Source of the DNA: a virus
Strand: one strand, 5' to 3'
DNA: 37,868 bases
IMG/VR virus record: IMGVR_UViG_3300023223_000189
Span: 1-37,868 of that record
This document shows, piece after piece, positions 2,856 to 37,868 of this stretch (its first letter is position 1; each line of letters begins with the position of its first letter). The translations under genes were made by a program, and so were the position numbers. Below the pieces are notes generated by a model. It was given only the letters and a program-made list of their open reading frames with translations. It was not told the DNA's origin and searched no databases.

Positions 2856-3023
2856 TGCCTGTCTTTCCAAGCTGTCAACTTTGCTCACCTTCCCAACCAA
2901 ACCAGAACACGGGAAGCTACGAGACCTTTCGGTTTCGGGTCTTAAACCCTCATCAGTCGTAGTAATTGTTCTGGCCTGCCTATCTACTTGCAAAATGGCG
3001 ATAGGGTATGATCTTTTCACTTA

Positions 3024-3037
3024 CTTTATCAATAAAG
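3024..3037. promoter_or_regulatory. Operator-like palindrome CTTTATCAATAAAG
   Basis: Same 14-bp element as 2842-2855 in the opposite orientation, 182 bp away. Confidence 0.4.
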
Positions 3038-3079
3038 ACTAATCTAGAACTAATATTAAACCTATATAGCCGTTTAGCA

Positions 3080-3184: not shown

Positions 3185-3439
3185 ATGGCATCAAGTTCAA
3201 TGTGTAAGACCTACGCCGCATTAAAGGGTCGTGGTGACTGGATGAGTAGGCTAGAAATAGCTCACGAGTCCGGGGTTGGCCCCAGGTGGGTTGGAGTATG
3301 CTCAAGATTATTAGTAGAAGGAGGTGTTGCAGAATCAAAGACAATAGATCGACGTAAATATTACCGGCTATCAACGGGTCACGAAGATAGCGCGGTAGTT
3401 AATGATATCAATGAATCTAACAGGATTAAATCAATATGA
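3185..3439 (+). CDS. Small winged-helix-like DNA-binding protein
   Basis: Strong TAAGGAGG Shine-Dalgarno. LEIAHESGVGPRWVGVCSRLLVEGGVAESK...YYRL resembles a wHTH. It is the first gene of the rightward arm, and its stop overlaps the next start. Confidence 0.5.
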   Translation: MASSSMCKTYAALKGRGDWMSRLEIAHESGVGPRWVGVCSRLLVEGGVAESKTIDRRKYYRLSTGHEDSAVVNDINESNRIKSI

Positions 3440-4209
3440 TCAACACAACTATTATGACAGTAACTCCGTCCAAGGCAAAGAAAATGCTTGAGATGAACCT
3501 AAATAACCGGCCATTAAATGGTAAGCACGTAGCGTTCATTGTTAGCGAAATTAAAAATGGCAACTGGAGACTAAATGGCGAGTCAATCAAGATTGGAAAA
3601 GATCGTCTAATTGATGGTCAGCATCGACTTCAGGCTATCGTGCAGTCAGGCAAATCTATGAAGACCGTAGTAATGACAGGTATTGATGATGATGTTTTTG
3701 ATACAGTAGATACCGGACGAGCCCGAAAGCATGCAGATATTTTAGCTCTCAATGGGGAGAAAAATACAGCGGCATTGGCATCATTGCTTATTATGTTACA
3801 TCGATATTATGGGGAGAACTGGAAGGATACAAAAAGAATGTCAAATTCTGAAATTGAAAAGCTGTTGGAAAAGTATCCTGATGCAAGAGCCTCCGTTGCC
3901 CATAATTATAGAGCCACGGGCTTATTTGTGCCAAAGATAATTAATCTATGTCATTATGTATTTAGCAATATCGACAAGGATCAAGCGGATTATTTTATCT
4001 CTTCAATGTGTAGTGGTGCGAATTTATCATCAAACAATCCAATTTACACGCTACGCAACAAGGTTATGACTGCCAAGCTAACCGGGGCAAGACATCATCC
4101 TGATACTATTTGCACTATGGCGTTTAAAGCATGGAACATGATCCGGCAAGGGAAAAAGTCTACCAGGCTGCATGTTAAGAGTACCGACACTCCTGACAAG
4201 GCAGTTTAG
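3436..4209 (+). CDS. ParB N-terminal-domain (ParB/Srx, DGQHR-type) protein
   Basis: The LIDGQHRLQAIVQSGK motif and downstream DTGRARK are typical of phage ParB-like nuclease-domain proteins. Confidence 0.65.
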   Translation: MINTTIMTVTPSKAKKMLEMNLNNRPLNGKHVAFIVSEIKNGNWRLNGESIKIGKDRLIDGQHRLQAIVQSGKSMKTVVMTGIDDDVFDTVDTGRARKHADILALNGEKNTAALASLLIMLHRYYGENWKDTKRMSNSEIEKLLEKYPDARASVAHNYRATGLFVPKIINLCHYVFSNIDKDQADYFISSMCSGANLSSNNPIYTLRNKVMTAKLTGARHHPDTICTMAFKAWNMIRQGKKSTRLHVKSTDTPDKAV

Positions 4210-4295: not shown

Positions 4296-4475
4296 ATGAA
4301 AAGAATTATTGCTGCCGCCAAATCTCTGGCAATGACGGGATGGTTTGTTAAAGCGTCTTGGGGATATATCGTTACTCGGCGACCCTCTTCAAAAGTTGAA
4401 TTTATTGTAGGCATAGTCCCCGCATGGTTCCGATTTACTATTTCCACATATAAGGACATCAGGCCAGGTGTCTAA
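4296..4475 (+). CDS. Hypothetical 59-aa protein, probably membrane-associated
   Basis: TAAGGAG Shine-Dalgarno 6 nt upstream of ATG 4296. The sequence is hydrophobic and aromatic-rich. Confidence 0.5.
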   Translation: MKRIIAAAKSLAMTGWFVKASWGYIVTRRPSSKVEFIVGIVPAWFRFTISTYKDIRPGV

Positions 4476-4557
4476 TTCTAAGACTTGGAAAAGGTGCGCC
4501 CTCCCAGGCTAGGCAGAATTGATCACTGCCTATTGACTGATCATAAAAGGAATCTAT

Positions 4558-4842
4558 ATGAACTGTCCAAATCCAATGTGCAAGTACGGCGCTGATGCCA
4601 ATTGCTGCAATCCTATGCACTCGTTCGAGAATGTTGGCAAGCGATACAGGAAAAAGGGCGCTACGTTAATGCGCCCATATGTACCAGGAGAAGACCTTAC
4701 AGGCATGTCTGTCAGCGAGGAGGATACCCCAGAGTTAGGCGGTATGATTGCCATAGGCGATGATAATGGCGCTCAGTGGTATGTGTCGAAAGGGTACTTT
4801 GATCAGTTTTATGAAGAGGTCCCTATTGTGAAAGAATGTTAA
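4558..4842 (+). CDS. Hypothetical protein with N-terminal Cys cluster
   Basis: 94 aa, AAGGA Shine-Dalgarno, followed by a promoter/terminator unit. Confidence 0.6.
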   Translation: MNCPNPMCKYGADANCCNPMHSFENVGKRYRKKGATLMRPYVPGEDLTGMSVSEEDTPELGGMIAIGDDNGAQWYVSKGYFDQFYEEVPIVKEC

Positions 4843-4843
4843 C

Positions 4844-4872
4844 TTGATAGATCATAGGTATTGGTTGATAAT
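4844..4872 (+). promoter_or_regulatory. Sigma70-like promoter TTGATA-17-GATAAT
   Basis: -35 at 4844-4849, 17-nt spacer, -10 at 4867-4872. Confidence 0.5.
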
Positions 4873-4878
4873 TCAATC

Positions 4879-4990
4879 CTACACAGAAAGACACACAGGT
4901 ATATACAGTTAACCGACCGGAGCAAGTCATCATGGCCTAACTCGACTAAATCCAGCGCACTGGTAGCCTCCTTTATGGGGGCTTTTTATT
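4879..4990 (+). ncRNA. Candidate ~110-nt sRNA or terminating leader upstream of the first deformylase gene
   Basis: It is bounded by the promoter at 4844-4872 and the terminator at 4965-4990. No ORF longer than a few codons lies inside. Confidence 0.35.
4965..4990 (+). terminator. Intrinsic terminator
   Basis: AGCCTCC-TTTAT-GGGGGCT (one G-U pair) followed by TTTTATT. Confidence 0.6.
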
Positions 4991-5077
4991 GCCTATTCAT
5001 TACCAAACATTAACGGTCATATATCCTGGCAGAGGTTATGATGGAGGCTCATTGATAAGGGAATGGAGAAGAACGAA

Positions 5078-5512
5078 ATGTCAATAAAGTTTGAAGGGCA
5101 TCCAGCGCTTTACAGAACGTCTATGGCTGTTGAGGGCGGGACGGATGTTATTTCTATAATTAGTCACTTGTGGTCTGTAATGACACAAGAGCGAGGATGC
5201 GGATTAGCACATAACCAAGTTGGTGGATCAAAGAGAATCATTGTTATTCATGCCAATGGATTTCGACAAGAATTTATTAATCCTATTATTACTAAGCGGT
5301 ATGGAGGAAAGACCACCAGCAGGGAGGGCTGCCTATCATTTCCCGGTCTTCAGGTTTCTGTTATTCGTGACAAGAAAATAATCGTTGAAGGATTTGATAA
5401 AAATTGGAAGCCGGTTAAATTCAAGCTAAAGGGTCTAGCTTCTTGTTGTGTCCAGCATGAAATTGATCATCTGGACGGGGTAACTATAAGTGACTATAAG
5501 GATAACGAATGA
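5078..5512 (+). CDS. def: Peptide deformylase, minimal phage type (copy 1, 144 aa)
   Basis: All three PDF motifs are present: GCGLAHNQ, EGCLSFPG and QHEIDHLDG. The protein ends ~10 residues after HExxH. GGAG lies 9 nt upstream of ATG 5078. Confidence 0.85.
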   Translation: MSIKFEGHPALYRTSMAVEGGTDVISIISHLWSVMTQERGCGLAHNQVGGSKRIIVIHANGFRQEFINPIITKRYGGKTTSREGCLSFPGLQVSVIRDKKIIVEGFDKNWKPVKFKLKGLASCCVQHEIDHLDGVTISDYKDNE

Positions 5513-5754
5513 ACAAGCCATACACACAAGACCAACTAGACCACTACATGGAAGTCGGCAGCGATAGCCGGTTTGAATACTGCATGGTTCGGCAGCTGAT
5601 GGAGGAGAATAAGTTGCTTAGAAGCGACAAGACAATGCTGGTTAATATTATTGCAATGGACGCAGAAGGCTGTGAAGCATTGGTAAAGGCTCACCGTGAG
5701 CTAGAGGAGAGCCATGCAGAGCTTGAAGACCTGCTAGATGGATTGACTGAATAG
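5509..5754 (+). CDS. Hypothetical acidic coiled-coil protein
   Basis: ATGA overlap with def copy 1. 81 aa. Confidence 0.6.
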   Translation: MNKPYTQDQLDHYMEVGSDSRFEYCMVRQLMEENKLLRSDKTMLVNIIAMDAEGCEALVKAHRELEESHAELEDLLDGLTE

Positions 5755-5758
5755 GGGC

Positions 5759-5893
5759 TCACGAAGCCCCAGCAATACCCCGCATTACCAGATCAACCGC
5801 AATGTCACTATTAGCAGCACCGCTTACACTCCAGCCGGCAACCAGGATGAATAGCCAGAATGACATCCATAGTACTCGTTTTATGTTGATCAT
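5759..5893 (-). CDS. 44-aa single-pass membrane peptide (below ORF-track cutoff)
   Basis: Hand translation MINIKRVLWMSFWLFILVAGWSVSGAANSDIAVDLVMRGIAGAS. ATGA overlap with the upstream gene. It is the last gene of the inverted cassette. Confidence 0.45.
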   Translation of the reverse strand: MINIKRVLWMSFWLFILVAGWSVSGAANSDIAVDLVMRGIAGAS

Positions 5894-6075
5894 GACTTTT
5901 CCTTGATTAAGACCTCAATGATATCGTCTAACTTTTTTCTGATATTTGAATATCCGTCCTTCTGAAGGCCAAGGACAAATGTTGGCGAACATCCTTCTTC
6001 CTTTGCAATTTTGTGAAGATCCGAATTATCAAGGACAAGATCAATAATCTCTCCATAGTATATGTGCTTATTCAT
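5890..6075 (-). CDS. Hypothetical protein
   Basis: 61 aa, start/stop-coupled within the inverted cassette. Confidence 0.55.
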   Translation of the reverse strand: MNKHIYYGEIIDLVLDNSDLHKIAKEEGCSPTFVLGLQKDGYSNIRKKLDDIIEVLIKEKS

Positions 6076-6293
6076 TTCCGTGACTCCAGTTTCTGCCGTA
6101 GCTTGTTAATCGTTTGTGACTGCTTGGCTATCTCATCTTTCTGCTCAAGGATTAGCTCCTGGTCGCGCAGTGCATTGGCCTGGTAGTGCTCGATAGTCTT
6201 CGGCATCGGCTCACCTTTAGCAGGGGTAACCGTATTGCCGTCTCGACAAACCTGGTCATAGCCTGCGTCTGGATCATATCTATCTATACCCAT
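6072..6293 (-). CDS. Hypothetical coiled-coil protein
   Basis: 73 aa, coupled starts and stops. Confidence 0.55.
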   Translation of the reverse strand: MGIDRYDPDAGYDQVCRDGNTVTPAKGEPMPKTIEHYQANALRDQELILEQKDEIAKQSQTINKLRQKLESRK

Positions 6294-6553
6294 TATTTCT
6301 CTTCCTTAGCTGCTGATAGCATGGCTTTGTATATGTCATAGTTCAGTTCTTCTGGCGCGATGCTAAAGCAATCATTAATATGCCTTGCTTCCTGCATCAT
6401 TGCATCTGTAGGATCTTCAGGCACTATTACCTTGCCTTCTAGGTGCTTATTGATTATGGCAATTGCATCCTCTACATCAAGACAAGTTACTCCTTGCCCA
6501 TAATGAAAGTTTGCTGCCTGTACTAGCTCATCAATCATCTCCTGCTTGCTCAT
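6293..6553 (-). CDS. Hypothetical protein
   Basis: 86 aa, coupled starts and stops. Confidence 0.55.
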   Translation of the reverse strand: MSKQEMIDELVQAANFHYGQGVTCLDVEDAIAIINKHLEGKVIVPEDPTDAMMQEARHINDCFSIAPEELNYDIYKAMLSAAKEEK

Positions 6554-6774
6554 ACGTTTTTATCCTTATGGTAAGTAACTGCCCCGACACGCTTCACCAT
6601 TCCCATCATGTTTAGAATCGCCTTAGATGGCGGCTTATGGCCGTTTAGCACCTGACCTATATATTGACGACTAACGCCTAGCACTTTGGCCACTGCGGCG
6701 GCTGGCGACGGATCATCACCATAATAGAATGCGATGTGTACCGCCATTGCCTGTCTGAATTTCTTCTCGTTCAT
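6550..6774 (-). CDS. Cro/YdaS-like HTH regulator
   Basis: VAKVLGVSRQYIGQVLNGHKPPSKAI is an HTH pattern like Cro/YdaS. GGAGG Shine-Dalgarno is present. It is the first gene of the inverted cassette. Confidence 0.7.
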   Translation of the reverse strand: MNEKKFRQAMAVHIAFYYGDDPSPAAAVAKVLGVSRQYIGQVLNGHKPPSKAILNMMGMVKRVGAVTYHKDKNV

Positions 6775-6799
6775 TACTGCCTCCTATTAAGTTGAGATA

Positions 6800-6828
6800 A
6801 TAATAAACAATAAGGGGTTGCAGTGCAA
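6800..6828 (-). promoter_or_regulatory. Leftward sigma70-like promoter TTGCAC-17-TATTAT for the inverted cassette
   Basis: On the minus strand, -35 is at 6828-6823 and -10 at 6805-6800. Confidence 0.5.
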
Positions 6829-6846
6829 GCGGTATTGGTTTATATT
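6818..6846 (+). promoter_or_regulatory. Rightward sigma70-like promoter TTGCAG-17-TATATT for def copy 2
   Basis: -35 at 6818-6823, -10 at 6841-6846. The two -35 boxes together form the palindrome TTGCAGTGCAA (6818-6828). Confidence 0.5.
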
Positions 6847-6879
6847 CATTCCATCACTTGCGGTATGGAGCAAAACAGA

Positions 6880-7314
6880 ATGGCATTAAAGTTTGAAGGA
6901 CACCCAGCACTGAGTAACACGTCAACGGCTGTTGATAGAGGCGACGATGTGCTTTCCACAATTAGCCATATGTGGTCTGTAATGACACAGGAACGAGGAT
7001 GTGGATTAGCAAATAACCAAGTGGGCGGATCGAAAAGAATTATTGTTGTTCACGCCAATGGGTTTCGCCAGGAATTCATAAACCCTATTATCACCAAGCG
7101 ATATGGAGGAAAGATCACTAGCAAGGAGGGGTGCCTATCATTTCCCGGCCTTCAAGTTTCCGTTATTCGTGATAGGAAGATAATCGTTGAGGGGTTTGAT
7201 AAAAATTGGAAGCCGGTTAAATTTAAATTAAAAGGTCTAGCTTCTTGTTGTGTCCAGCATGAAACTGATCATTTGGACGGGGTAACTTTAATTGACCATA
7301 AGGATAAATCATGA
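6880..7314 (+). CDS. def: Peptide deformylase, minimal phage type (copy 2, 144 aa)
   Basis: Motifs GCGLANNQ, EGCLSFPG and QHETDHLDG. It has the same length and the same start context (GGAGCAAAACAGA-ATG) as copy 1. Confidence 0.85.
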   Translation: MALKFEGHPALSNTSTAVDRGDDVLSTISHMWSVMTQERGCGLANNQVGGSKRIIVVHANGFRQEFINPIITKRYGGKITSKEGCLSFPGLQVSVIRDRKIIVEGFDKNWKPVKFKLKGLASCCVQHETDHLDGVTLIDHKDKS

Positions 7315-7586
7315 GCAAGCAAGAAGTAACATTCAAATACCAATTCGGCCAGATTCTTATAACCGTTGTAGCATCTGTCACTCTGGGTAGTCCGGCCAAG
7401 ACATATGGTGAGGCTGAACACTGTCACCCTGCAGAAGACGCCGAGGTTGAGCTTCTAGTCGTGATGGCACCATGGGCAACAAAGATGCAGGCAGAGGACT
7501 ACGGCGTCCCTGAGATGGGCAGATTTCGCGGCCTGGATGATGTATTGAAAGACTTGGCTATTGCCGAAGCCGTGGAGCAAGACTAA
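7311..7586 (+). CDS. Hypothetical protein
   Basis: ATGA overlap with def copy 2. 91 aa. Confidence 0.6.
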   Translation: MSKQEVTFKYQFGQILITVVASVTLGSPAKTYGEAEHCHPAEDAEVELLVVMAPWATKMQAEDYGVPEMGRFRGLDDVLKDLAIAEAVEQD

Positions 7587-7795
7587 TGGAGAGTCACAAT
7601 GCAGATCAAGCCCAACATATTTCTTCTATCTTCGCTATGGCCCCTCCTGTATCTGGATTTGATACGCATCGCGACGAGGGGGAGAGAAGAACCAACATCA
7701 ATAAAAAAGCACGTGCCGAAGCTGCACAATCTCGACGAAAAATGGGACAAGCTGAGCTACGAATCCAATACCAAATCGAGGCGGCTGCAGAATGA
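7586..7795 (+). CDS. Hypothetical basic protein
   Basis: TAATG overlap with the upstream gene. 69 aa. Confidence 0.5.
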   Translation: MESHNADQAQHISSIFAMAPPVSGFDTHRDEGERRTNINKKARAEAAQSRRKMGQAELRIQYQIEAAAE

Positions 7796-7959
7796 CTGAC
7801 TATTATGTTGAAATATGGCAGACATTCCCGTCAACTGGGGTAACTAAAACAATGGGGCCATTTAGTAAATCAAAAGCTTCGCGAGTTGCTGACGGGGTTG
7901 AGATGAATCTTGATGAAGAGTTTTATTCTGTTCTTATAGTTAGTGATGAAGATGAGTGA
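7792..7959 (+). CDS. Hypothetical 55-aa protein (below ORF-track cutoff)
   Basis: Hand translation MTDYYVEIWQTFPSTGVTKTMGPFSKSKASRVADGVEMNLDEEFYSVLIVSDEDE. ATGA overlap upstream and ATGAGTGA overlap downstream. Confidence 0.5.
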   Translation: MTDYYVEIWQTFPSTGVTKTMGPFSKSKASRVADGVEMNLDEEFYSVLIVSDEDE

Positions 7960-8164
7960 CCGAATAGAGAGGCTGAAGCAATCGGATGAGGGTAAGTCTC
8001 GCGCTATGGAGCTGTTCTATTTTCACTCCGACTCTGCCGAGATTCTAAGCCAGTTATCAGAGCAGCCTAACTATGGATTGCTCCGGTTTAGCGTTGTAAT
8101 GAGTGAGATATACCAGCAGATGGCAATTGACGATCAAGCCAAAGAAGACATGAACAAAGCTTAA
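7952..8164 (+). CDS. Hypothetical acidic protein
   Basis: Start chosen at the ATG (7952) that overlaps the upstream stop. Confidence 0.55.
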   Translation: MSDRIERLKQSDEGKSRAMELFYFHSDSAEILSQLSEQPNYGLLRFSVVMSEIYQQMAIDDQAKEDMNKA

Positions 8165-11283: not shown

Positions 11284-11445
11284 ATGAACGAAGTAATCAC
11301 ACATCTCGCCGGTACTATCGCTGTATATGGATCTTTCTATAGTGTCTGCTCAGTTTTGAGCAGTATTAAAACCGGGAACCAACTTGAGCTGTTTATTGCT
11401 CCACTTTCTGCATCGCTAGCAATAGGATATTTAATAGCATATTAA
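11284..11445 (+). CDS. 53-aa two-helix membrane protein (below ORF-track cutoff)
   Basis: Hand translation MNEVITHLAGTIAVYGSFYSVCSVLSSIKTGNQLELFIAPLSASLAIGYLIAY. AAGGGGAAAGGA Shine-Dalgarno. It is followed by the hairpin GGGGT-TTCG-GCCCC. Confidence 0.45.
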   Translation: MNEVITHLAGTIAVYGSFYSVCSVLSSIKTGNQLELFIAPLSASLAIGYLIAY

Positions 11446-11497
11446 CCAATGGGGTTTCGGCCCCTAATCAATCGCATAGGTAAGGATAGCAGCTGTC

Positions 11498-13512: not shown

Positions 13513-13688
13513 ATCGCAAATGGTGGCCAGACCTGACATTCCTGTATACACCTCTACGAGATACGGCATTTTACATTGTGTTTGGGGTTGTAATTGGCTT
13601 TGGGCTTATCGACTGTAACGAGAAAAGAGGCGATATTGACATGAATACTCACGCTGAACTCACAGAAAATATTAAGGAAGAAAAATGA
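13509..13688 (+). CDS. 59-aa single-pass membrane protein (below ORF-track cutoff)
   Basis: ATGA overlaps on both sides. Hand translation MNRKWWPDLTFLYTPLRDTAFYIVFGVVIGFGLIDCNEKRGDIDMNTHAELTENIKEEK. Confidence 0.4.
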   Translation: MNRKWWPDLTFLYTPLRDTAFYIVFGVVIGFGLIDCNEKRGDIDMNTHAELTENIKEEK

Positions 13689-14128
13689 CGACGATTGCAT
13701 GGGATGGTAAAACACTGGCTGTCGATAGCAGGGCTACATCTGACGGGTACGTAATGACCGACAAGTGTAAAAAGCTGTATACCGGGGTAGGCCAGTATGT
13801 AGCGGCTGCCATGTGCGGTGATGAGGCCGAGGCCGTAGACATGATGGACTGGCTGCGCACTGGCGGGAAAGCCCCCGAGTGCAAGGAGGGTGTGATTATC
13901 GTTGCCGTAATGGAAGACGGTACAGCCCACAAGTTCACCGGGGGCATTGAGACCCCTATCAAGGTCCAGGTGCCCTACGCCGACGGGTCAGGGTGGATCG
14001 TGGCCCTCGCGTCAATGGATGCCGGGCTGAATGCAGTTGAGGCAGTGAAGGCTGCCAGGAAGCGCGACATCTACACTGGCGGCCCAGTAAAGTCGTTTAA
14101 AATAGGGGCTGACGATGAAGGTATCTAA
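13685..14128 (+). CDS. HslV/proteasome-beta-like N-terminal-nucleophile hydrolase (147 aa)
   Basis: MTTIAWDGKTLAVDSRATSDGYVMTDKCKKLY...AAAMCGDEAEA...ADGSGW parallels HslV [38 protein letters not shown]...GFAGGTADA...GSGG. Thr immediately follows the initiator Met. Confidence 0.55.
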   Translation: MTTIAWDGKTLAVDSRATSDGYVMTDKCKKLYTGVGQYVAAAMCGDEAEAVDMMDWLRTGGKAPECKEGVIIVAVMEDGTAHKFTGGIETPIKVQVPYADGSGWIVALASMDAGLNAVEAVKAARKRDIYTGGPVKSFKIGADDEGI

Positions 14129-27571: not shown

Positions 27572-27590
27572 GAAAAGGGGCCGAAGCCCC
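27572..27590 (-). terminator. Intrinsic (probably partial) terminator right after the major capsid gene
   Basis: The minus strand reads GGGGC-TTCG-GCCCC followed by TTTTCC. Confidence 0.55.
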
Positions 27591-27595
27591 ATTGG

Positions 27596-28540
27596 TTAGC
27601 TGATAGTCAGGTCAAATACACCGCCAGAAGCAGCTTCATTACGCGCTTCCAGTGTGTATTCAGACAGAAGCTGAACGCGGTCAGAATCGCCAGTCTTGGC
27701 AAGTGGGGTCTGCATGAACTCTCGCAGGGTAGCCATTGCCCACATATCCATGTCAAGCACTAGGGCGGACTCAGGACGCGAGAAGCGGTTGGTCTGAACC
27801 TGCAGCTCACCGAAATCACTAACGTAAATCTTGATCGCAGTGTTCAGAGTCTGATCTTTTGAATCAGTGTTGCGTGTCGCATTACCTGAGAAGGCCGACA
27901 TGGCTTGCTTATTGAATGACCCAACCATGATCATATTAGGATCACCGCCTTGATCAAAGCAGTCGGCCAGTACATCTTTCAGATCAGATTCAGCAAAGGC
28001 TCGCAATGTACCATCAGTACGAGCATCTGTACCATCACCCGTAGGAGACGCACCGGTTGCACCAAAATTATCATTGGTCGCAATCCATGCTTCGATACCT
28101 GCAAGCTCACGCGCCACAGAATCGGAGCCGGTCACAGCCGCATTGTTAGCCAGCAGTGAGCTCTCCATATCACGCTTGAGAGCCTTGCCCGCCTTCAGAA
28201 TCTGATAATCAAACTCATCACCACGACCTGCCGAATCAACAACACGCTGTGAGCCGGTCACGCGAGGCACCTTATCGCTAATTTGTACGCGGTTGCCCAG
28301 TCGAACACTGGGTGTTGAGGCGGTTGTAGTCGCATCATCACCTTCAATTACAGCGTTTGTGGCGCTCGCTGTATCCAGGGCATCAGTTTGCCATTCATGC
28401 AGTGTTGCGGTCGCAGGAGTGCGCGCAATACTCGACATAAACGGCGTTTCGGTGGGAGAGATGTCATAAATCACATCACTCAAGTCTTCACGGTTGCCAA
28501 TCGCGTCAAAGGTTGAAAATGTATCTGCTGGTTGTGCCAT
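27596..28540 (-). CDS. Major capsid protein (HK97-fold family)
   Basis: 314 aa. The N-terminus FSTFDAIGNREDLSDVIYDISPTETPFMS is a recognisable capsid-family motif. It follows the scaffold gene and is followed by a terminator. Confidence 0.75.
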   Translation of the reverse strand: MAQPADTFSTFDAIGNREDLSDVIYDISPTETPFMSSIARTPATATLHEWQTDALDTASATNAVIEGDDATTTASTPSVRLGNRVQISDKVPRVTGSQRVVDSAGRGDEFDYQILKAGKALKRDMESSLLANNAAVTGSDSVARELAGIEAWIATNDNFGATGASPTGDGTDARTDGTLRAFAESDLKDVLADCFDQGGDPNMIMVGSFNKQAMSAFSGNATRNTDSKDQTLNTAIKIYVSDFGELQVQTNRFSRPESALVLDMDMWAMATLREFMQTPLAKTGDSDRVQLLSEYTLEARNEAASGGVFDLTIS

Positions 28541-37477: not shown

Positions 37478-37868
37478 TTTGTGCCACCTTTTCGTCAGTC
37501 CAGCGCTCGCCGTTGAGGTACGTCGTAGGGTGCATTTCTGCAAAACCCAGTTGATTAAGATTCAGTCTGTCTTCCACATCTCGACACAGCATTGTCGTGA
37601 AGTCGTAAATCGTCGGCCCATGCTCATTGGTTTTTGATTTTAAGATCCTGTTGAACAGTGCCGCTGATTTCTTCTTGTTCACCTTTCGAATGCCAGATTT
37701 CCAGAACTGATCAAAGCAGCGATCAAGCTCGTCTTGAGCTAATCTCTTTTCTTTACCACTATCACTATCACTCTTACTATCACTCTTACTAACACTATCG
37801 GCTTTTCTGGGTTCCTTTGTGTTCCCAGATAACCCAGTGGGTTCTTTTGGGTTACTTGGTCTTCCGCC
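37224..37868 (-). CDS. Replication initiator (O-like), C-terminal part. 37725-37868 duplicates 1-144; the full protein is about 290 aa.
   Basis: In-frame continuation DRCFDQFWKSGIRKVNKKKSAALFNRILKS...HPTTYLNGERWTDE, motifs typical of phage replication-initiator C-domains. The last ~84 codons overlap the P-like gene and look low-complexity. Confidence 0.6.
   Translation of the reverse strand, partial: GGRPSNPKEPTGLSGNTKEPRKADSVSKSDSKSDSDSGKEKRLAQDELDRCFDQFWKSGIRKVNKKKSAALFNRILKSKTNEHGPTIYDFTTMLCRDVEDRLNLNQLGFAEMHPTTYLNGERWTDEKVAQNAGHQQPNQKRPSMDIAREARERDAAAFRGMGPSPRGQGSGNVVMDGQHVLEQVDRPMGADDQPGWDGQRGIPRLVSCDQKTEG
37725..37868. repeat. Terminal overlap: second copy of bases 1-144
   Basis: Same 144-nt string as the window start. 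Unique genome length is therefore 37,724 bp. Confidence 0.95.

Follow-up and report, generated by a model that had tools for sequence, protein, structure and literature searches.

The window, that is, the whole 37,868-nt metagenome contig analysed here (IMG/VR virus record IMGVR_UViG_3300023223_000189), carries two open reading frames (ORFs) for peptide deformylase (PDF), c1 at 5078-5512 and c2 at 6880-7314. We consider it likely that the window represents a complete lambdoid/P22-like phage with two functional minimal PDFs of the Vp16 type, a resident copy (c2) and a copy held as a cassette in a slot (c1), both of which have been retained. Both proteins would act as metal enzymes (Cys85, His127 and His131, with Glu128 and Gln47) that remove the N-formyl group from nascent proteins, and neither would have the C-terminal helix with which bacterial PDFs dock on the ribosome. 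In the proposed arrangement c2 would be the promoter-proximal gene of a rightward early operon, lying ~35 nt downstream of a sigma70-like promoter that stands back to back with a second promoter, that of a leftward operon whose first gene encodes a 74-aa helix-turn-helix (HTH) regulator. c1, derived either from a duplication of c2 or from a swap with a close relative, would have entered a hypervariable slot that ends the upstream rightward unit and consists of a terminator, a conserved leader, a variable gene, orf81 and a hairpin. After this entry purifying selection would have acted on both copies, while their 3' part was probably homogenised by gene conversion. The phage may then draw on two transcription units under separate control for its deformylase, which would come as two slightly differing enzymes, and two supplies would secure the maturation of phage proteins when the host's own PDF runs short or is inhibited.

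Few viral accessory genes are as abundant as phage PDFs, and what a phage gains from them is still debated. A phage that retains two diverged copies in separate transcription units, both under purifying selection, could serve as a natural experiment, in which dosage, timing or specificity might be the selected trait.

Two minimal deformylases and the divergence between them

The end of the window exactly repeats its start (positions 1-144 and 37725-37868, a direct repeat of 144 nt), and the window therefore represents a whole phage genome of 37,724 bp that is either circularly closed or terminally redundant; its size of 37.7 kb compares with 38.6 kb for the relative L001. Its virion genes encode a portal, the large (TerL) and small terminase subunits, a scaffold, a major capsid protein (MCP), head-closure and ejection proteins, and its replication and lysis genes encode Erf, a DnaQ-like exonuclease, NinG/Rap, an HslV-like peptidase and an M15 endolysin. 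Judged by this gene content, in particular Erf, NinG/Rap, the endolysin, terminase, portal, capsid and ejection genes, the phage is of lambdoid/P22-like type. Protein family scans detected no integrase on the window, and no tRNA genes or Rfam families were found on it. The two PDF genes are as follows:

5078-5512, plus strand: c1, the extra peptide deformylase copy (144 aa; GCGLAHNQ, EGCLS, HEIDH, V135-T136-I137 and a 7-aa tail)
6880-7314, plus strand: c2, the peptide deformylase at the ancestral position (144 aa; GCGLANNQ, EGCLS, HETDH, V135-T136-L137 and a 7-aa tail)

A sequence-only reading of this DNA had described two 144-codon ORFs at these coordinates, each with all three PDF motifs, and both statements were borne out: motif I is GCGLAHNQ in c1 and GCGLANNQ in c2, motif II is EGCLSFPG in both copies, and motif III is QHEIDHLDG and QHETDHLDG, respectively. 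In an alignment of 18 family members the motif I residues Gly40, Gly42, Leu43, Ala44 and Gln47 are invariant, as are the metal ligand Cys85 in motif II and His127, Glu128, Asp130 and His131 in motif III (HEIDH in c1, HETDH in c2), and all metal and catalytic residues (Gln47, Cys85, His127, Glu128, His131) are retained in both copies. Both genes have a ribosome-binding site (RBS), GGAG, 9 nt 5' of the ATG (5065-5068 for c1, 6867-6870 for c2), and in both the stop codon overlaps the start of the next gene (ATGA).

The same reading had taken the two proteins for minimal phage PDFs similar to that of Vp16, with a stop shortly after HExxH and without the C-terminal helix. Each chain does end 13 residues past the second His, with the alpha3 helix absent, and the family assignment held in profile searches, at E ~1e-37 for Pfam PF01327 (c1 9e-37, 126.5 bits; c2 9e-38, 129.7 bits; cut-off 22.8 bits) and above the cut-off of the TIGR00079 equivalog (110.4 bits for c1 and 113.5 bits for c2; cut-off 103.95 bits). 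PHROG 2890 matched c1, which alone was run against it, at E 1.2e-33. The best solved-structure match for the window PDFs was 5MTC, the Vp16 enzyme (PDB phmmer, E 1.6e-33), and AlphaFold2 (AF2) models of c1 and c2, with mean pLDDT values of 93.6 and 90.8, superposed on 5MTC as their top Foldseek match (TM 0.92/0.97, root mean square deviation ~1 A), followed by dozens of bacterial PDFs at TMq ~0.84 or higher. The c2 model shows no helix past residue 132 and the c1 model only a 4-residue turn (137-140). We infer that c1 and c2 are both functional, active deformylases.

The PDF of Vibrio phage Vp16 (VP16T orf60T, 5MTC), a minimal enzyme of type 1B, is active in vivo with no C-terminal helices for ribosome binding, and this activity requires Ile137, the last residue of the chain (PMC5591237). 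This C-terminal residue forms, through its carboxylate, a salt bridge to Lys91 that has been called the 'offset element'; the substitution I137F abolishes activity, whereas a chimera of Vp16(VTI) with added helices is active (PMC5591237). The window PDFs share ~45% identity with it, residues 7-137 being aligned to the Vp16 C-terminus, and like it they have no alpha3 ribosome-binding helix, are phage-borne and lie among small ORFs; c1 also has the V-T-I triplet after HLDG, where c2 has V-T-L. They differ from the Vp16 enzyme in motif I, which is GLA(H/N)NQ and not GLAGNQ or GLAANQ, in the Leu137 and Thr129 of c2, and in running 7 charged residues past position 137 (SDYKDNE in c1, IDHKDKS in c2), so that the terminal-carboxylate lock would not be usable as described. 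Such an extension need not abolish activity, since the Vp16(VTI) chimera with added helices is active (PMC5591237), and the ISDY of c1 resembles, by eye, the E. coli eta3 motif FMDY named in that study. Moreover Vp16 has one copy, downstream of its integrase, whereas the window phage has two copies and no detected integrase.

A second point of comparison is the PDF of cyanophage S-SSM7 (3UWA; PMC3660681) and the marine viral 'type 4' PDFs, which likewise have a truncated C-terminus with a short segment after motif III. The fold is common to S-SSM7 PDF and the window PDFs (TM 0.87-0.88), although their identity is only 36-37% (PDB phmmer E 1.3e-17), and unlike the pair described here the S-SSM7-type PDFs are single copy, occur in large T4-like cyanophages and have a proposed role in photosystem D1 turnover. 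Known phage PDFs are in general single copy and lie in varied gene contexts.

By exact count 22 of the 144 residues differ between c1 and c2, the same number that a hand alignment had given approximately, and the proteins are 85% identical. At the nucleotide level 71 of 435 positions differ (84% identity), 46 of them at third codon positions, in keeping with the earlier remark that changes in the 5' two thirds are largely of this kind. The copies form direct repeats 1.8 kb apart, as reported, with a start-to-start spacing of 1802 nt, and their homology begins at 5060/6862, 18 nt upstream of the ATG, and runs to the ATGA stop/start junction, the flanks being unrelated.

Both ORFs are intact, and the comparison of c1 with c2 by the Nei-Gojobori method gave a ratio of non-synonymous to synonymous substitutions (dN/dS) of 0.118 (dN 0.085, dS 0.72). 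The sequence-only reading had suggested purifying selection on both copies and proposed this ratio as a check; the value obtained, 0.12, is not near 1 and indicates that both copies are kept by purifying selection. Together with the intact frames it also contradicts a reading of c1 or c2 as a decaying pseudogene. When the gene was divided into regions, the ratio of non-synonymous to synonymous differences per site (pN/pS) was 0.36 in codons 1-33, 0.06 in codons 34-105, 0 in codons 106-128 and, on small numbers (7 non-synonymous and 1 synonymous), 1.69 in codons 129-144. The divergence is concentrated in the N-terminal 33 and the C-terminal 16 residues, the latter around the Vp16 'offset' Ile137, and the catalytic core is nearly frozen. 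The C-terminal region affected is the element by which, as the Vp16 study showed, activity is controlled.

The claim that the last third of the two genes is almost identical stood in part: identity is 90-92% there as against 65-88% further 5', but the final 16 codons hold the seven non-synonymous changes just mentioned. Codons 1-105 contain 42 third-position differences and codons 106-145 only 4 (permutation p 0.01), and the shortage at synonymous sites in the 3' tract was also seen in Fisher's test (p 0.015). This scarcity of synonymous changes makes the partial gene conversion that had been suggested plausible, and the 3' quarter is probably a gene-conversion or recombination tract.

When the 22 differences were polarised with L001 and a second relative, L002, 10 proved derived on c1 and 6 on c2. 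Eight of the 10 changes on c1, among them His45 in motif I, lie within residues 1-57, and those on c2 include Thr129 inside HExxH and Leu137. Tajima's relative-rate test for asymmetric evolution between the copies was not significant (12 vs 6 amino-acid changes, chi-square 2.0). The nucleotide identity of 84% between the copies compares with 75% to L001, and synonymous sites are saturated against both L001 and L002, as opposed to a dS of 0.72 between c1 and c2; at the nucleotide level, these comparisons indicate, c1 and c2 are each other's closest relatives, and a search of 5.8 billion proteins contained nothing nearer to them.

A variable slot and a divergent control region

The features around the two genes are listed here in map order:

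4965-4990, plus strand: terminator-like hairpin with T-run that closes the upstream genes 5' of the c1 slot (terminator scan; position kept in L169 and L171)
4991-5061, plus strand: conserved slot leader with a -10-like TATGAT at 5037-5042 (82% identical to L169 729-828; putative promoter function)
5062-5077, plus strand: left end of the c1 cassette (RBS GGAG at 5065-5068, 9 nt before the ATG)
5509-5754, plus strand: orf81, a conserved gene to which no function is assigned, ATGA-coupled to c1 and last gene of the upstream rightward unit
5754-5770, no strand assigned: GC-rich hairpin GGGGCT-cacga-AGCCCC between the convergent units (read from the sequence; no T-run; putative terminator)
5759-6774, minus strand: leftward five-gene operon, start/stop-coupled (HTH regulator at 6550-6774, then ORFs of 86, 73, 61 and 44 aa)
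6775-6879, no strand assigned: divergent promoter region (hexamers by eye, below scan threshold; palindrome at 6818-6828; -10 region and leader conserved with L001 and L002)
7311-7586, plus strand: orf91, ATGA-coupled to c2, weakly YuA gp49-like (Pfam PF20788, E 0.016)

As had been noted, each PDF gene has a different downstream neighbour, orf81 (5509-5754) and orf91 (7311-7586), which are unrelated. Through homologs of orf81 we reached three short contigs, L169, L170 and L171, on which these homologs (56-64% identity) are always followed by a convergent small-gene operon; in family profile scans orf81 itself had no family match. A hairpin analogous to that at 5754-5770 follows the orf81 homolog in L171. 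The alignment of L169 with the window covers 4470-4536 (96%), 4961-5061 (82%) and 5508-5797 (74%), and a block consisting of TATGAT/TATAAT and GGRGGCT is conserved in the window, L169 and L171. At the position of c1, L169 has an unrelated 44-aa ORF and L171 an unrelated 55-aa ORF, and the slot genes of all three are ATGA-coupled to the orf81 homolog. Moreover the homology between the window and L169 ends at 5061, where that between c1 and c2 begins (5060). Because the same flanks hold unrelated ORFs in L169 and L171, and because the two homology boundaries coincide, we conclude from these alignments that c1 is a precise cassette of RBS plus ORF in a hypervariable slot.

Lambdoid phages carry 'morons' and have hypervariable accessory slots. 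c1 resembles a moron in occupying a gene-sized slot of varying content, with a terminator-like hairpin and a conserved leader 5' of it and a hairpin after the two-gene unit. It differs in that no convincing autonomous promoter was found for it and in that it copies a gene that the phage already has. An upstream terminator-like site and variable slot content, both expected of a moron-like unit, were seen, and a promoter of its own was seen only as the -10-like hexamer. c1 may be expressed from the upstream unit or from this weak conserved -10-like element.

A second gene-sized indel lies beside the c1 slot: a 424-nt block (4537-4960), which includes a Cys-rich 94-aa ORF (orf94, 4558-4842), is absent from L169, where the flanks are joined directly (L169 731/729).

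The position of c2 is of another kind. L001, a 38.6-kb phage contig, has a single PDF (P0002), with which the rightward genes begin past a leftward operon whose lead gene encodes a small HTH protein, and nucleotide similarity to L001 reaches ~55 nt upstream for c2 and not for c1. Since the L001 PDF shares with c2 its position, its upstream leader and, weakly, its downstream gene, the comparison identifies c2 as the positional ortholog of the L001 PDF, that is, as the resident copy at the ancestral position. The downstream link is that orf91 resembles, by eye, the product of the gene that follows the L001 PDF (83 aa) and, in L002, that of the second gene past the PDF (85 aa); BLASTP gave only E 0.67, to L2_85, and the homology is weak.

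Between c2 and the leftward operon we read by eye a putative rightward promoter, TTGCAG (6818-6823) N17 TATATT (6841-6846), and a putative leftward promoter, TTGCAC (6828-6823) N17 TATTAT (6805-6800), both under the scan threshold; the -10 region and the leader align among the window, L001 and L002. A perfect palindrome, TTGCAGTGCAA (6818-6828), is common to the two back-to-back -35-like hexamers and may be the operator to which the 74-aa HTH protein binds, although as a repeated operator the palindrome TTGCAnTGCAA was a single site in the genome and not above chance. The 74-aa protein matched HTH_3 (E 3e-5, 24.3 bits; cut-off 23), a PHROG 'transcriptional repressor' family (E ~1e-3) and the L001 HTH protein (E 6e-4). 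Presumably c2 is driven by TTGCAG-N17-TATATT under the control of this HTH protein.

The sequence-only reading had the two PDF genes bracket five coupled genes on the opposite strand. The five minus-strand ORFs are there, overlapping by 1 or 4 nt, but orf81 separates c1 from them. Its description of these genes as an inverted regulatory cassette did not survive comparison: they are an ordinary leftward, HTH-headed operon that is also present in L001, L169 and L170 irrespective of flanking PDFs. In L169 and L170 orf81 converges on a small leftward operon ending in an HTH gene, and the first rightward gene is not a PDF. Since the arrangement of orf81 and HTH operon occurs there without a PDF as first rightward gene, the 'cassette' is best described, by these comparisons, as the usual leftward arm of the divergent control region of this phage and not as a PDF-bracketed unit, and c1 and c2 are not one structural unit. 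An inversion or a mobile element was likewise rejected, relatives having the same leftward operon without flanking PDFs. In both slots, the comparisons further indicate, the PDF is an accessory gene.

Within the leftward operon, which is otherwise 40-77% similar between the window and L169 at the protein level, there is a 75-nt island of 100% identity (window 6069-6143, L169 1547-1621). Co-occurring phages may have recombined recently, or the island may be a conserved element that both have, and it is a potential assembly hazard.

The GC content at third codon positions (GC3) of the two PDF genes is 34% and 38%, as against 51-55% in the adjacent orf81, orf91 and Erf genes and 53% in the L001 PDF. 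Such a low GC3 fits an accessory, horizontally moving gene, and hints at a lower-GC source or at different codon constraints.

Rarity of the two-copy state and competing explanations

A scan with hidden Markov models for a second PDF within +-10 kb was negative in all 162 other PDF loci, which comprised 80 IMG/VR and 80 metagenome loci among the matches listed (mostly distant PDFs) plus L001 and L002. The sequence-only reading had thought the two-copy arrangement undescribed and had suggested a search of relatives for one-copy and two-copy states; L001 has one copy, two copies occur only in the window among these loci, and our literature search found no paper on a two-PDF phage. Among 50,697 sequenced phage records 164-166 have a PDF match, in 165-167 places, so that no more than one record can have two; the 100 records listed did not include it. 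A search of 5.8 billion proteins placed only four PDFs in the tight clade, namely c2, c1, P0002 (84% identical to c2) and P0004 (78%). Closer relatives of the phage were also looked for: peptide-pattern scans with c2 gave only cellular PDFs at 30-35% identity in GTDB genomes and did not find a close relative in IMG/VR, megablast of window 4500-8000 against sequenced phages had zero matches, an exact look-up of c2 in the contig index returned no record, and Erf-based and ParB-like-based searches for genome-level relatives retrieved loci that share that one gene only, without the PDF region. A single phage PDF is well known, and we regard the two-copy, two-slot state of a Vp16-like minimal PDF as uncommon and not as mechanistically surprising.

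Further afield, a 62%-identical minimal PDF lies among ribonucleotide reductase and 5'-3' exonuclease genes on L181 (JGI 3300054976), a 293-kb contig that is jumbo-phage-like. Since so similar an enzyme occurs there, the Vp16-like PDF clade appears to span very different phage types.

Several results weigh against a phage with two retained, functional and separately regulated PDFs. The arrangement is known from one metagenome contig only, and the protein clusters of c1 and c2 have one member each, on one contig. The second Ala of motif I (G-phi-G-phi-A-A-x-Q) is His in c1 and Asn in c2 (Asn also in L001 and L002, Ala in 14 more distant relatives), and among the 18 aligned family members c2 is the sole carrier of either Thr129 in HE-phi-DH or Leu137. 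The promoter scan upstream of c1 found no good -35 and no convincing sigma70 promoter, which counts against the proposed separate regulation. Finally a neighbour-joining protein tree groups c2 with L001 at 63% bootstrap and c1 with c2 at 34%, leaving the trio not resolved; because it does not pair c1 and c2 as sisters, an older duplication or import from another phage is possible, and the extra N-terminal changes on c1 are a likely source of the non-resolution.

These last points bear on the alternative to which we give most room, although it is rather unlikely, namely that the two genes are truly linked and c1 is a xenolog, imported from a related phage by recombination at gene boundaries, with the 16% divergence predating co-residence. 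The weak pairing of c2 with L001 and not c1, the crowding of 8 of the 10 c1-derived changes into the N-terminal 57 residues, which makes this part look like a distinct lineage, the rampant mosaic exchange at gene boundaries in these phages and the GC3 of 34-38% in both PDFs against 51-55% in their neighbours are all consistent with it, but c2 is by far the nearest of all known PDFs to c1, both at synonymous sites and over the nucleotide sequence as a whole, and the 5.8-billion-protein search held no c1-like donor. An artefact is improbable, though it deserves attention: two co-occurring strains, each with one PDF, in the c1 slot and the c2 slot respectively, could have been joined by the assembler, in which case there would be no real two-copy genome. 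The arrangement rests on a single contig, both slots are variable (L169 and L171 without a PDF in the c1 slot, L169 and L170 with a first rightward gene other than a PDF), the slots lie 1.8 kb apart, beyond short-read pairing, and the 75-nt island of identity to L169 (6069-6143), longer than typical k-mers, falls between them and counts against a real linkage. Set against this, the genome contains no shared k-mer of at least 33 nt, the ends of the contig join up at a credible length (37.7 kb vs 38.6 kb in L001), both junctions are clean gene boundaries, and the low-dS 3' tract suggests an exchange between the genes that is easiest if they are co-resident. Repeat collapse, another kind of artefact, was rejected, the longest exact run common to the copies being 31 nt, with no repeated k-mer of at least 33 nt.

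That one of the two no longer has its deformylase function, or has it in altered form, by decay or by neofunctionalisation (for example as an inhibitor decoy or a formylated-peptide binder), strikes us as very improbable. The substitutions of c2 (Thr129 in HE-phi-DH, and Leu137 where Vp16 needs Ile and where I137F abolishes Vp16 activity), the His45 of c1 in motif I and the pN/pS of 1.69 in the last 16 codons speak for it, whereas both ORFs are intact and have the same length and RBS, dN/dS is 0.12 overall and ~0.05 in core codons 34-128, all metal and catalytic residues are retained, both proteins score above the TIGR00079 equivalog cut-off and both models are confident and PDF-like. It is barely credible that the direct repeats serve as a recombination substrate, with an Erf-mediated crossover between c1 and c2 deleting orf81 and the HTH operon to yield a deregulated derivative with one chimeric PDF. 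The direct repeats of 435 nt at 84% identity, the phage-encoded Erf annealing protein and the low-divergence 3' tract, which shows that the copies interact, would allow such an event; against it, the operon occurs in relatives that have no PDFs on its flanks, c1 and c2 are identical over at most 31 consecutive nt, deletion variants were not found and there is no sign of selection for the crossover.

Why a phage with two functional, retained PDFs would keep the second may be approached through bacteria, in which it is common to find additional PDFs on mobile elements, and these can make the cell resistant to natural PDF inhibitors (PMC12690207); such inhibitors also induce some Vibrio prophages (Chen et al. 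2025, bioRxiv 10.1101/2025.06.06.656871). The window phage resembles bacteria with an accessory second PDF (Def2, integron and plasmid PDFs, PMC12690207; PDFs for inhibitor resistance, bioRxiv 10.1101/2025.06.06.656871) in having more than one PDF per genome, the extra one as a cassette in a mobile slot. Those second PDFs are full-length and lie in cellular genomes, integrons and plasmids, unlike the copies in the window, which are minimal, phage-type, close paralogs in one phage genome. By analogy with the mobile-element PDFs, protection against natural PDF inhibitors is a possible rationale for the second copy, and the case ties in with the findings that extra PDFs on mobile DNA protect against them. 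A more specific idea, to which we give little credence, is that each enzyme is specialised and has its own time of expression: c1 would be produced while the rightward early operon is silent (for example in a carrier or lysogenic state), shielding host and phage from PDF inhibitors, and c2 would be made from the switch-controlled early promoter for the burst of phage proteins, with the differing N-termini and the pairs I137/L137, I129/T129 and H45/N45 giving different substrate or inhibitor profiles. The two proteins are in themselves ordinary family members, and their arrangement looks like a simple duplication into a variable slot, so that the impact of the finding would be modest unless functional specialisation were shown.

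Other features of the genome

Several further genes of the window look accessory: that of the HslV-family peptidase just 5' of the endolysin (13685-14128), and those encoding a Lar-like restriction-alleviation protein (1892-2158) and an HNH/AP2 endonuclease (635-1048). At 3436-4209 the window encodes a 257-aa protein with a DGQHRL motif, which belongs to PHROG 5931 (unknown function) and is ParB/sulfiredoxin-like by eye.

A 21-nt inverted repeat (2836-2856 and 3023-3043) lies in the upstream early region, not far from a second divergent junction (~2160-2580); its arms are 95% complementary, lie 166 nt apart and are rich in TTATTGATAAAG-like half sites. Finally a 23-nt GC-hairpin sequence with a GGGGCCGAAGCCCC core occurs at 11443-11465 and, in the opposite orientation, at 27576-27598, one in the early and the other in the structural arm; the two are probably twin terminators.

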